From the NCBI GenBank assembly GCA_964571695.1, contig CAZNDG010000006.1:42859-106858 (forward strand): 64,000 nt of DNA. Direction: 5' to 3'. Made by a program: the position numbers and the translations under genes. The first letter of the stretch is position 1. Every line of letters starts with the position of its first letter. Positions 37,789-39,540 of the stretch are shown here, one piece after another. Under the pieces are notes generated by a model, which was not told the origin of the DNA, did not search any database, and saw only the letters and a list, made by a program, of their open reading frames with translations. This DNA comes from an uncultured Syntrophus sp. Lineage in GTDB: Bacteria; Desulfobacterota; Syntrophia; Syntrophales; UBA8958.

Positions 37789-39540
37789 TCACCCCGCCGG
37801 CCGGATAAGTTTCCGCCGGGAGGGGTTACGGAGTTTGCGGACGCCGTTATTCTCCACATGACGCGCCCTTTCCAGCGACAAACTCACCGGCGTCTCCTTC
37901 ATTTCATCTGTGGAGACATCGACCCGCTCGCTGATCCCGAAACGCATCCGTAACACCTTTTCTTCCCGGGGCGTCAGGGTCGCCAGTATCTTGCGGGTCT
38001 GTTCCGCCAGATCCATGCTGATCGTCGCCTCGGAAGGGGACATTATCTTTTTGTCCTCGATGAAATCGCCCAGATGGCTGTCCTCTTCCTCACCGATCGG
38101 AGTTTCCAGAGATATGGGTTCCTTGGCTATTTTCAAGACCTTCCGCACCTTCTCCAGGGGGAATTCCATCTTGGCGGCAATCTCCTCCGGGGTGGGTTCC
38201 CTTCCCAACTCCTGGACCAGGTACCGGGAGGTGCGGATCAGCTTGTTGATCGTCTCGATCATATGGACGGGTATGCGGATCGTACGGGCCTGATCGGCAA
38301 TGGCCCGGGTGATGGCTTGACGGATCCACCAGGTGGCGTACGTGGAGAATTTGTAACCTCGCTGATATTCGAATTTATCCACCGCCTTCATCAGCCCGAT
38401 ATTGCCTTCTTGAATCAGGTCCAGAAACTGCAGCCCTCGATTGGTGTATTTCTTGGCGATGCTGACCACCAGGCGCAGATTTGCCTCCACCAGGGTTTTT
38501 TTCGCCAGTTCCGCCTTGGCTTCCCCGTCTTCGATGGTCGCCACCACCTTCTTCAGCTCCGTCACCGACAGGCCGGTTTCCTGGGCCACCTTTTTCTTGC
38601 GGCGGTTCGCATCCTTGATGACGATCTCCGCCGTTTTTAGCTTATCCAGCGGCACGCCCAGTTCCTTGACCATCTGCATCTGGGTCTTCCGGTCCTGGCG
38701 CAGGCGGCTCCAGGACTTTTCCAACTGGGTAAGAGACAGACAGGTGTCTTCTTTACAGCGCCGGATTTCTTCATCCGCCTTATCCACTTCGTTGATGAAG
38801 AGTTTGAGGATGGACACCATCCGGTCTATCTGCCTCTTGCTGAACTTGACCTTCCGGCAATCCCGGATAATGGCCTTGACATTCTTCTCCAGGTTCTTCT
38901 CCTGGATGGCGCGCTGTTCGGTACTGATGCTCCGGTCCTTCAGCGCCTCCTTGATCTTGTCGTTCTTTCTGTTCAAGGCCGTAATCCTGTCGATCAAACG
39001 GAGGACCCGATCGCGGTGCAAATCCTCCTCAACGAAGCCGTCCTCGTCCTCCAGGTTGTCCACGACGGTTTTGATCCGCATCTCACCGCCGCGGAGCTTC
39101 TTCCCGATATCCATGACCTCCTTGACGCAGACATTGACGCTGAAGACGGAGTCCATGGTATCCCGGATGCCTTCTTCGATCCTTTTGGCAATCTCCACCT
39201 CCCCCTCCCTGCTGAGGAGGGCGACCATTCCCATTTCCCGGAGATACATCTTGACGGGATCGCCGGTTTTTCCCGCCACGGGCATCAAACCGAGGAGATC
39301 GTCGTCTTTCGCCCCCACCAGCTCCTCAGGGGATTTTTTCACGACCAGCTTTTCACCCTTGTCCGTATCGATGATATCGATGTTCTTCTCCCCGAAAAGC
39401 ATGATTATATCGTCAATCTGATCCGAAGAGATGATGTCCGACGGCAGCATGTCATTTACGTCGTCATAGGTCAAAAAGCCCTTCTCCTCTCCCAGGGACA
39501 TAAGTTTCTTGAACTCCTCGGAATGGATGTCTTTACCCAT
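37789..39540 (-). CDS. rpoD: Primary sigma factor sigma-70 with an atypical region 4.2
   Basis: Region 1.1, [56 protein letters not shown]; follows dnaG. Confidence 0.95.

Follow-up and report, generated by a model that had tools for sequence, protein, structure and literature searches.

Order-wide release from constraint of the -35-reading helix-turn-helix of RpoD in Syntrophales, in which TTGACA promoters are retained

Introduction

Few protein-DNA interfaces in bacteria are as conserved as region 4.2 of the primary sigma factor, on which the textbook -35/-10 model of the promoter is based. In canonical group 1 sigma-70 factors, it is this region that binds the -35 element. Recognition of the -35 region can also be passed to another protein, as in phage T4, where the AsiA/MotA system docks on the C terminus of sigma-70, and in the SigO-RsoA pair of Bacillus subtilis the sigma-2-type and sigma-4-type functions are carried on separate polypeptides. 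Sigma-70 truncated before region 4.2 reportedly still initiates at extended -10 promoters, a result said to come from work of Kumar and colleagues in J Mol Biol in 1993. The primary sigma factors of epsilonproteobacteria, such as Campylobacter jejuni RpoD and Helicobacter pylori sigma-80, have a diverged region 4.2, and their reading of the -35 element is weak or absent. Promoters of C. jejuni and H. pylori have no -35 box and carry a periodic A/T signal together with an extended -10 element (PMC3656092). In spirochaetes, the RNA polymerase has been described as disengaging the -35 element when melting takes place (bioRxiv 10.64898/2026.02.09.704077).

Here we describe the rpoD gene found in a 64-kb stretch of Syntrophales DNA (the window) and compare its product with RpoD sequences from the rest of the order and from outgroups.

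Results and discussion

The rpoD locus

The gene encoding the primary sigma-70 factor, rpoD (37789-39540, minus strand), is a 583-aa open reading frame preceded in its operon by yqeY (41352-41798, minus strand; Pfam YqeY) and dnaG (39555-41342, minus strand; DnaG domains in the syntenic gene calls) and followed directly by a gene for tRNA-Met (CAT) (37613-37688, minus strand; ARAGORN and Rfam). The protein contains Pfam regions 1.1, 1.2, 2, and 3 (PF03979, PF00140, PF04542, and PF04539; E values of 7e-18 to 1e-30) and a region 4 that passes only weakly (29.3 bits; cutoff, 24.1). It also passes the NCBIfam RpoD equivalog NF004208 with 626.4 bits (cutoff, 555), as do the proteins of the relatives L002, L005, L083, and L084. 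The gene order yqeY-dnaG-rpoD-tRNA-Met-CT398 is common to the window and 11 related loci, and the order (rpsU)-yqeY-dnaG-rpoD is present in one canonical outgroup as well. On the basis of the conserved synteny and the RpoD equivalog score, the open reading frame is assigned as the orthologous rpoD of a Syntrophales bacterium.

The local gene order is rpoD, tRNA-Met, a CT398-like zinc-ribbon gene (36742-37467), and rnpB. The last of these, encoding a class A bacterial RNase P RNA (36355-36744, minus strand; Rfam RF00010, 305 bits), lies directly 3' of the CT398-like gene.

The helix-turn-helix of the window's RpoD

A sequence-only reading of this DNA had pointed to the interval 37843-37932 (minus strand) as an in-frame change of region 4.2 in an otherwise canonical sigma factor. 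The interval translates exactly to aa 537-566, and the other two frames do not hold the canonical TLEEVG..VTRERIRQIE, in keeping with that reading's view that no frameshift is involved. Pfam and alignment bear out its statement that regions 1 to 4.1 and the RKLR.PSR motif are retained. Three parts can be distinguished at the C terminus (E. coli residue numbering was taken from the match to structure 4jk1). Across 121 Syntrophales sequences, the region 4.1 helix (37924-37980, minus strand; aa 521-539) is essentially invariant, with an entropy of about 0. After it comes a degenerate helix-turn-helix (37843-37923, minus strand; aa 540-566), equivalent to E. coli residues 569-594 plus one residue, with the additional residue placed in the turn by alignment to solved sigma-70 structures. 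The basic C-terminal element (37810-37842, minus strand; aa 567-577) is the retained end of region 4.2, in which R568, K569, R571, N572, S574, R575, and R576 are invariant (alignment A1).

The sequence-only reading had noted changes at the equivalents of E. coli R584 and Q589, and the structure-based alignment gives L556 and H561 at these positions. In the -35 contact set of R584, E585, R586, R588, Q589, and K593, the window's RpoD keeps three of six residues (E557, R558, and R560, equivalent to E585, R586, and R588) and also replaces K593, with N565; it thus lacks the full set of region 4.2 contacts that is conserved in group 1 sigma-70 factors. The equivalent of E. coli A594 is G566, and a helix-breaking NNG interrupts the recognition helix. 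Judged by these residues, the window copy is a half-decayed helix-turn-helix. In an AF2 model of the sigma-4 fragment, the region 4.1 helices have pLDDT values of 81 to 95 and the segment has values of 43 to 54, with a sole short helix at aa 554-560; this model is weak evidence, since it was built on a shallow alignment and a model of the full-length protein was of poor quality even for region 2.

The segment is not an artefact: errors of sequencing or assembly, frameshifts that compensate each other, a contig chimera, and a DGR-type target of hypermutation can all be excluded. Artefacts do occur among the related public database entries. The entry P0044 (L081), a close homologue in which region 4.2 is canonical, is a chimera of assembly with its junction within region 2, being 99% identical up to aa 365 and divergent thereafter, with different downstream genes, and the C terminus of P0043 looks like a frameshifted type a sequence (types are defined below). 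The segment itself is identical in 15 protein clusters (P0001-P0015) from NCBI, JGI, ENA, and Logan assemblies, and one of these, P0010, alone spans 38 contigs. Its recurrence in dozens of assemblies that were made independently and come from four sources excludes an assembly or sequencing error, which the sequence-only reading had allowed for. The segment is codon-aligned across 12 genomes, and no hidden canonical frame was found in the window, L002, or L005. A DGR target or foreign insert was likewise rejected: the GC content of the segment is native, no template-repeat copy of it is present in the window, and strains that are 98 to 100% identical show essentially no variation within it.

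Variation of the segment across Syntrophales

Two homologue searches yielded more than 200 Syntrophales RpoD clusters, and a scan of genome contigs yielded at least five Syntrophales loci. Alignment of region 4 across the order, a check that the sequence-only reading had proposed, places the variation throughout the clade and not in the window's copy alone. In the more than 200 clusters, a segment of approximately 27 residues is the sole fast-evolving part of the protein besides the non-conserved region. In all clusters it is flanked by 29 invariant residues followed by an invariant [ED]R, and RKLRNPSRR is usually invariant too. Column entropy over aa 540-567 is 1.1 to 1.5 bits in 121 Syntrophales sequences, which are nearly invariant elsewhere, whereas the same columns have 0.0 bits in 73 outgroup RpoDs from several phyla. 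Given the zero entropy of these columns in the outgroups, the contrast is far beyond chance.

The outcomes differ among lineages. Type a segments (DYSPEESRESLEMSRERAKQIESGA) are near canonical (SRERAKQIE) and retain R584, E585, R586, and Q589. Types b and c, which include the window's RpoD, follow the pattern VDVSTDE.KE.P..LSLE..R..E.NG., in which E557, R560, [H/Q/N]561, and E563 (equivalent to E585, R588, Q589, and E591) are conserved and their neighbors vary. Type d segments are acidic (for example, LAEESPEIIETPAENILSLPENNG) and without basic residues, and type e has GPGKKPEPLNFNKEHIRKMETPA. The Smithellaceae have an acidic, proline-rich linker (VGLPVPDENLSVDAVEPEIEEQEIMEEEIP) that leads into KKTKNSSRKR in place of the basic C-terminal element, and L005 ends in a tail of about 20 Asp/Glu residues. 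The Smithella-type tail was found on 79 contigs and on the 4.78-Mb contig ERZ21831019:ctg34076l, with unchanged synteny. Proteins of the Smithella type have no Pfam region 4 match, nor do relatives such as L089 and P0350. The sequence-only reading had spoken of a rewritten recognition helix; the wider comparison instead describes a clade-wide release of constraint over the whole helix-turn-helix, with many outcomes and no fixed specificity.

The closest 50%-cluster representatives, at 61 to 65% identity, are divergent too (ETMERAKKIEANALKKMR), and relatives at 55% identity or less are all canonical. The nearest canonical relatives, at 54% identity or less, occupy yqeY-dnaG-rpoD loci of their own in other lineages, and a member of the nearest canonical family that sits in such a locus is therefore an orthologue from another lineage. 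The alignments show an order-wide release of the approximately 27-residue, -35-reading helix-turn-helix from near-absolute constraint, whereas region 4.1 and all other parts of the protein stay frozen, as does the RKLRNPSRR tail in most lineages.

Evolutionary rates

Rates were compared in six genomes of the window's subtype, with omega scaled to the gene-wide dS. The segment has a dN of 0.10 to 0.28, which is 10 to 60 times that of regions 2 to 4.1 (0.002 to 0.012), and the non-conserved region has a dN of 0.04 to 0.13. Omega is 0.12 to 0.61 in the segment, or one to three times the value of the non-conserved region, and is near 0.00 to 0.02 in regions 2 to 4.1. From its dN and omega, the segment is under strongly relaxed constraint and yet is neither neutral nor positively selected. 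The very low omega of regions 2 to 4.1, together with orthology, suggests that the window's RpoD is the housekeeping sigma factor of the cell.

In E. coli, appropriators and anti-sigma factors bind the surface of region 4.2, and the sequence-only reading had offered escape from anti-sigma factors as one explanation of the variant. In its wider form, this would be an arms race in which diversifying selection favors escape from region 4.2-binding proteins of phages or of the cell, such as AsiA- or Rsd-like appropriators and anti-sigma factors. The extreme, lineage-specific divergence is limited to the binding surface of these proteins and has invariant flanks, as an arms race would have it. However, dN/dS never exceeds 1, the constancy of the segment among nearly identical strains does not fit, and neither the acidic linkers that replace DNA-contact residues nor the reading of TTGACA would be explained. 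Escape from anti-sigma factors thus finds no support in dN/dS, and an arms race as a whole appears quite improbable.

A neighbor-joining tree built from aa 1-539, which is approximate, its rooting included, recovers the Syntrophales as a monophyletic clade. In this approximate tree, the most degenerate sequences, those of L005 with its acidic tail and of the Smithellaceae, branch earliest, the window's type has type d as its sister, and the near-canonical type a is not basal.

TTGACA promoters

The TTGACA motifs that the sequence-only reading listed at 10482, 12303, 27173, 37747, 41868, 46420, 51353, and 58895 are all present, and its observation that TTGACA promoters coexist with the variant RpoD holds. 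TTGACA occurs 11 times in the 7.3 kb of intergenic DNA of the window, compared with 2.4 +/- 1.6 occurrences expected from 1000 dinucleotide shuffles, none of which reached 11 (4.6-fold enrichment), and it occurs 13 times in 56 kb of coding sequence. Most of the intergenic copies are directed towards a gene, with a TAnnnT-like hexamer 15 to 17 bp downstream. Hexamer enrichment and footprinting were used in place of a generic promoter scan, which had too little power (14 promoters found, 9.0 +/- 3.2 expected) and whose rule for the -10 element made it overlook the tRNA promoter.

The promoter of the tRNA-Met gene (37721-37747, minus strand) consists of TTGACA (37742-37747), a 15-nt spacer, and TATATC (37721-37726). 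Footprinting showed its TTGACA to be invariant in 12 of 12 genomes, with variable spacers and flanks. The promoter of the yqeY-dnaG-rpoD operon (41841-41868, minus strand) has TTGACA (41863-41868), a 16-nt spacer, and TAACTT (41841-41846), and its TTGACA is kept in all 10 genomes that have the intergenic region of this operon. Orthologous promoters are similarly conserved for hisI (TTGATA-N17-TACCAT), a histidine-kinase operon (TTGAAA-N17-TAnnAT), dctP, and PPDK. TTGA is the best-conserved part of these -35 boxes (TTGACA, TTGATA, TTGAAA, and TTGACT). Conservation is equal in the genomes of type d and the Smithella type, the RpoD of which is without DNA-contact residues. By this footprinting, promoters in all of the examined lineages keep TTGACA or TTGAnA 15 to 17 bp upstream of a TAnnnT -10 element. 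The window's promoters thus do not resemble those of the epsilonproteobacterial type, which lack a -35 consensus.

Several other features were noted. In the region 10482-11093 (plus strand), two HSP20 genes (11093-11500 and 11572-12075) have a TTGACA-N16-TATATT 611 nt upstream, so that either their leader is unusually long or a small gene or RNA in between has gone uncalled. The conserved, long palindrome TTGA(A/C)CATTTCATTCAAT-N-ATTGAATGAAATGT (approximately 31634-31680, plus strand) is shared with L082, L085, L086, and L087 and lies between an operon encoding a 60-aa protein and a PAS kinase on one side and an atpE-like gene on the other. Its TTGACA belongs to the palindrome, with no obvious role as a -35 box; the element is probably the operator of some regulator. 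Stand-alone genes resembling that for the ATP-synthase c subunit are found at 3242-3616 (minus strand) and 31881-32279 (plus strand), apart from the atpI/atpB cluster (8948-10271), and one of them adjoins a gene for a dCache protein, an arrangement that is syntenic in all relatives. The 5' leader of dctP (46637-47782) contains an element, CTATATGTATTGATGCCTGC..hairpin..GCAGGC (46531-46578, plus strand), downstream of a TTGACA-N17-TATCAG promoter. This element, which genomes of type a and of type b/c have conserved, had no match in Rfam and may be a cis-regulatory RNA of the TRAP transporter. In the close relative L085, an insertion of about 650 nt between HIT and yqeY (L085:7082-7738) carries several copies of a ...TTTTCAAAGGTC... 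unit, encloses the TTGACA operon promoter, and has the look of a mobile element or small repeat.

Search for another -35 reader

A canonical region 4 HMM matched RpoD alone in the 64-kb window and seven further loci, and no sigma-4-like open reading frame besides RpoD was found in the window or in the 6 to 10 kb on either side of rpoD at these loci. Pfam annotation of 40 window proteins identified no further sigma factor. At none of these loci does a gene for a sigma-4-type partner adjoin the sigma gene, as it would in a split sigma factor. The search for a canonical paralogue, covering 50%-cluster representatives and a homologue search from P0123, the nearest canonical hit, returned only orthologues from other lineages, and none of the hits matched the Syntrophales rpoD contigs in contig-length fingerprint. 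The CT398-like zinc-ribbon gene was considered as a partner and dismissed, since the same adjacency is found in many outgroups with a canonical RpoD. Literature on sigma factors of Syntrophus and Smithella or on loss of region 4.2 yielded nothing relevant, with the S. aciditrophicus genome paper outside the scope of the search.

The window also encodes a protein with HAMP and SpoIIE/PP2C phosphatase domains (49684-51351, plus strand), the RsbU-type input of partner-switching cascades. Alternative sigma factors are frequently under the control of such cascades. In the window, the phosphatase gene has neither a sigma factor gene nor an anti-sigma gene beside it.

What reads TTGACA in Syntrophales

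Because TTGACA is invariant also where RpoD keeps no contact residue, a reader of TTGACA must exist throughout these lineages, and the helix-turn-helix of RpoD cannot be that reader in at least some of them. Parsimony would place a second reader in the common ancestor. We therefore favor, among the three alternatives of the sequence-only reading, a second -35 reader: the -35-reading part of RpoD would be under clade-wide relaxed selection as a further sigma-4-type reader, with its gene at another place in the genome, takes over its function. We give this a probability of roughly one-half. A second reader in the common ancestor would have made the helix-turn-helix of RpoD dispensable, and this redundancy would have relaxed selection on it. 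Sequence-specific reading of the -35 element would then be performed mainly by the other module, for which the simplest candidate is a second group 1 or group 2 sigma factor with a canonical region 4.2; a trans-acting reader that docks on RNA polymerase is less likely than a second sigma factor. The contacts of RpoD with the -10 and extended -10 elements are intact, and RpoD would work through these, with region 4.1 binding the beta flap and the basic tail providing non-specific contacts.

For the window's own subtype, altered contacts, another alternative of the sequence-only reading, are possible. The segment of types b and c is not neutral, given the conserved equivalents of E585, R588, Q589 (Q/H/N), and E591 and an omega below 1, and it may keep some contact with DNA. 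The window variant could accordingly be a working, re-wired -35 reader in which the equivalents of E585, R586, and R588 and H561 read at least TTG, and only the decayed lineages (type d, Smithellaceae, and L005) would need a substitute. The same four conserved positions among variable neighbors in all type b/c sequences, an omega that stays below 1, the nearly fixed length of the segment within the subtype, the strong conservation of TTGA in the -35 boxes, and a Pfam region 4 score above the cutoff are all consistent with such a reader. However, the sister type d and the basal lineages have the same TTGACA boxes without contact residues, the recognition helix is interrupted by NNG, and AF2 confidence over the segment is low. 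E. coli R584 is thought to contact the C of TTGACA, and in the window's RpoD this residue is lost, yet the C is invariant. We consider a re-wired reader possible but doubtful.

It would be a larger departure if the Syntrophales had no other group 1 or group 2 sigma factor and TTGACA were read by a factor other than region 4.2 of a primary sigma factor. In that case the reader could be a stand-alone sigma-4-like protein, an unrelated DNA-binding protein, or an insertion in an RNA polymerase subunit, and its docking sites would be the basic RKLRNPSRR tail and region 4.1/flap, which is invariant. This is rather unlikely in our view; if true, it would amount to a cellular, order-wide "sigma appropriation" and a new architecture for the recognition of housekeeping promoters.

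Returning to the observations, the departure from a highly conserved protein-DNA interface is real, reproducible, and phylogenetically broad, and its DNA target is paradoxically retained. In an order of environmentally important syntrophs (relatives of Syntrophus and Smithella), the -35 reader is decaying or gone while TTGACA is under strong selection. Housekeeping transcription may be split between two primary-like sigma factors, or -35 recognition may have been passed to another factor. The order thereby offers a natural, testable system for asking what region 4.2 is needed for, and some caution is warranted, as the gene at the rpoD locus may not read the promoters predicted in Syntrophales genomes.

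Comparison with known systems

The Syntrophales RpoD is like canonical group 1 sigma-70 factors (E. coli RpoD and Thermus SigA) in gene, synteny, and domain order, and it shares with them regions 1.1 to 4.1, the RKLR.PSR motif, and TTGACA-N15-17-TAnnnT promoters. It differs in that the helix-turn-helix, invariant in 73 outgroups, is the most variable segment of the conserved domains. With the epsilonproteobacterial primary sigma factors it has in common a diverged region 4.2 and a probable weakness or absence of -35 reading, but those organisms have no -35 box, whereas the Syntrophales keep a strongly conserved TTGACA. The Smithella-type and L005-type proteins can be seen as natural equivalents of truncated E. 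coli sigma-70. The truncated forms, however, are laboratory constructs, whereas in Syntrophales the change affects a whole order and the only gene at the rpoD locus, with region 4.1 and the basic tail retained.

In the AsiA/MotA system of T4, an intact region 4 is remodelled by the phage and a different box is read, whereas the box in Syntrophales is still TTGACA. The partner in SigO-RsoA is encoded by an adjacent gene, in contrast to the Syntrophales, in which no sigma-4-like open reading frame lies near rpoD in the window and loci. The spirochaetes provide a similar case of a lineage-specific weakening of the contacts that sigma region 4 makes with the -35 element within a primary holoenzyme. 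Their region 4 is intact and capable of canonical -35 engagement, with no sequence decay reported.
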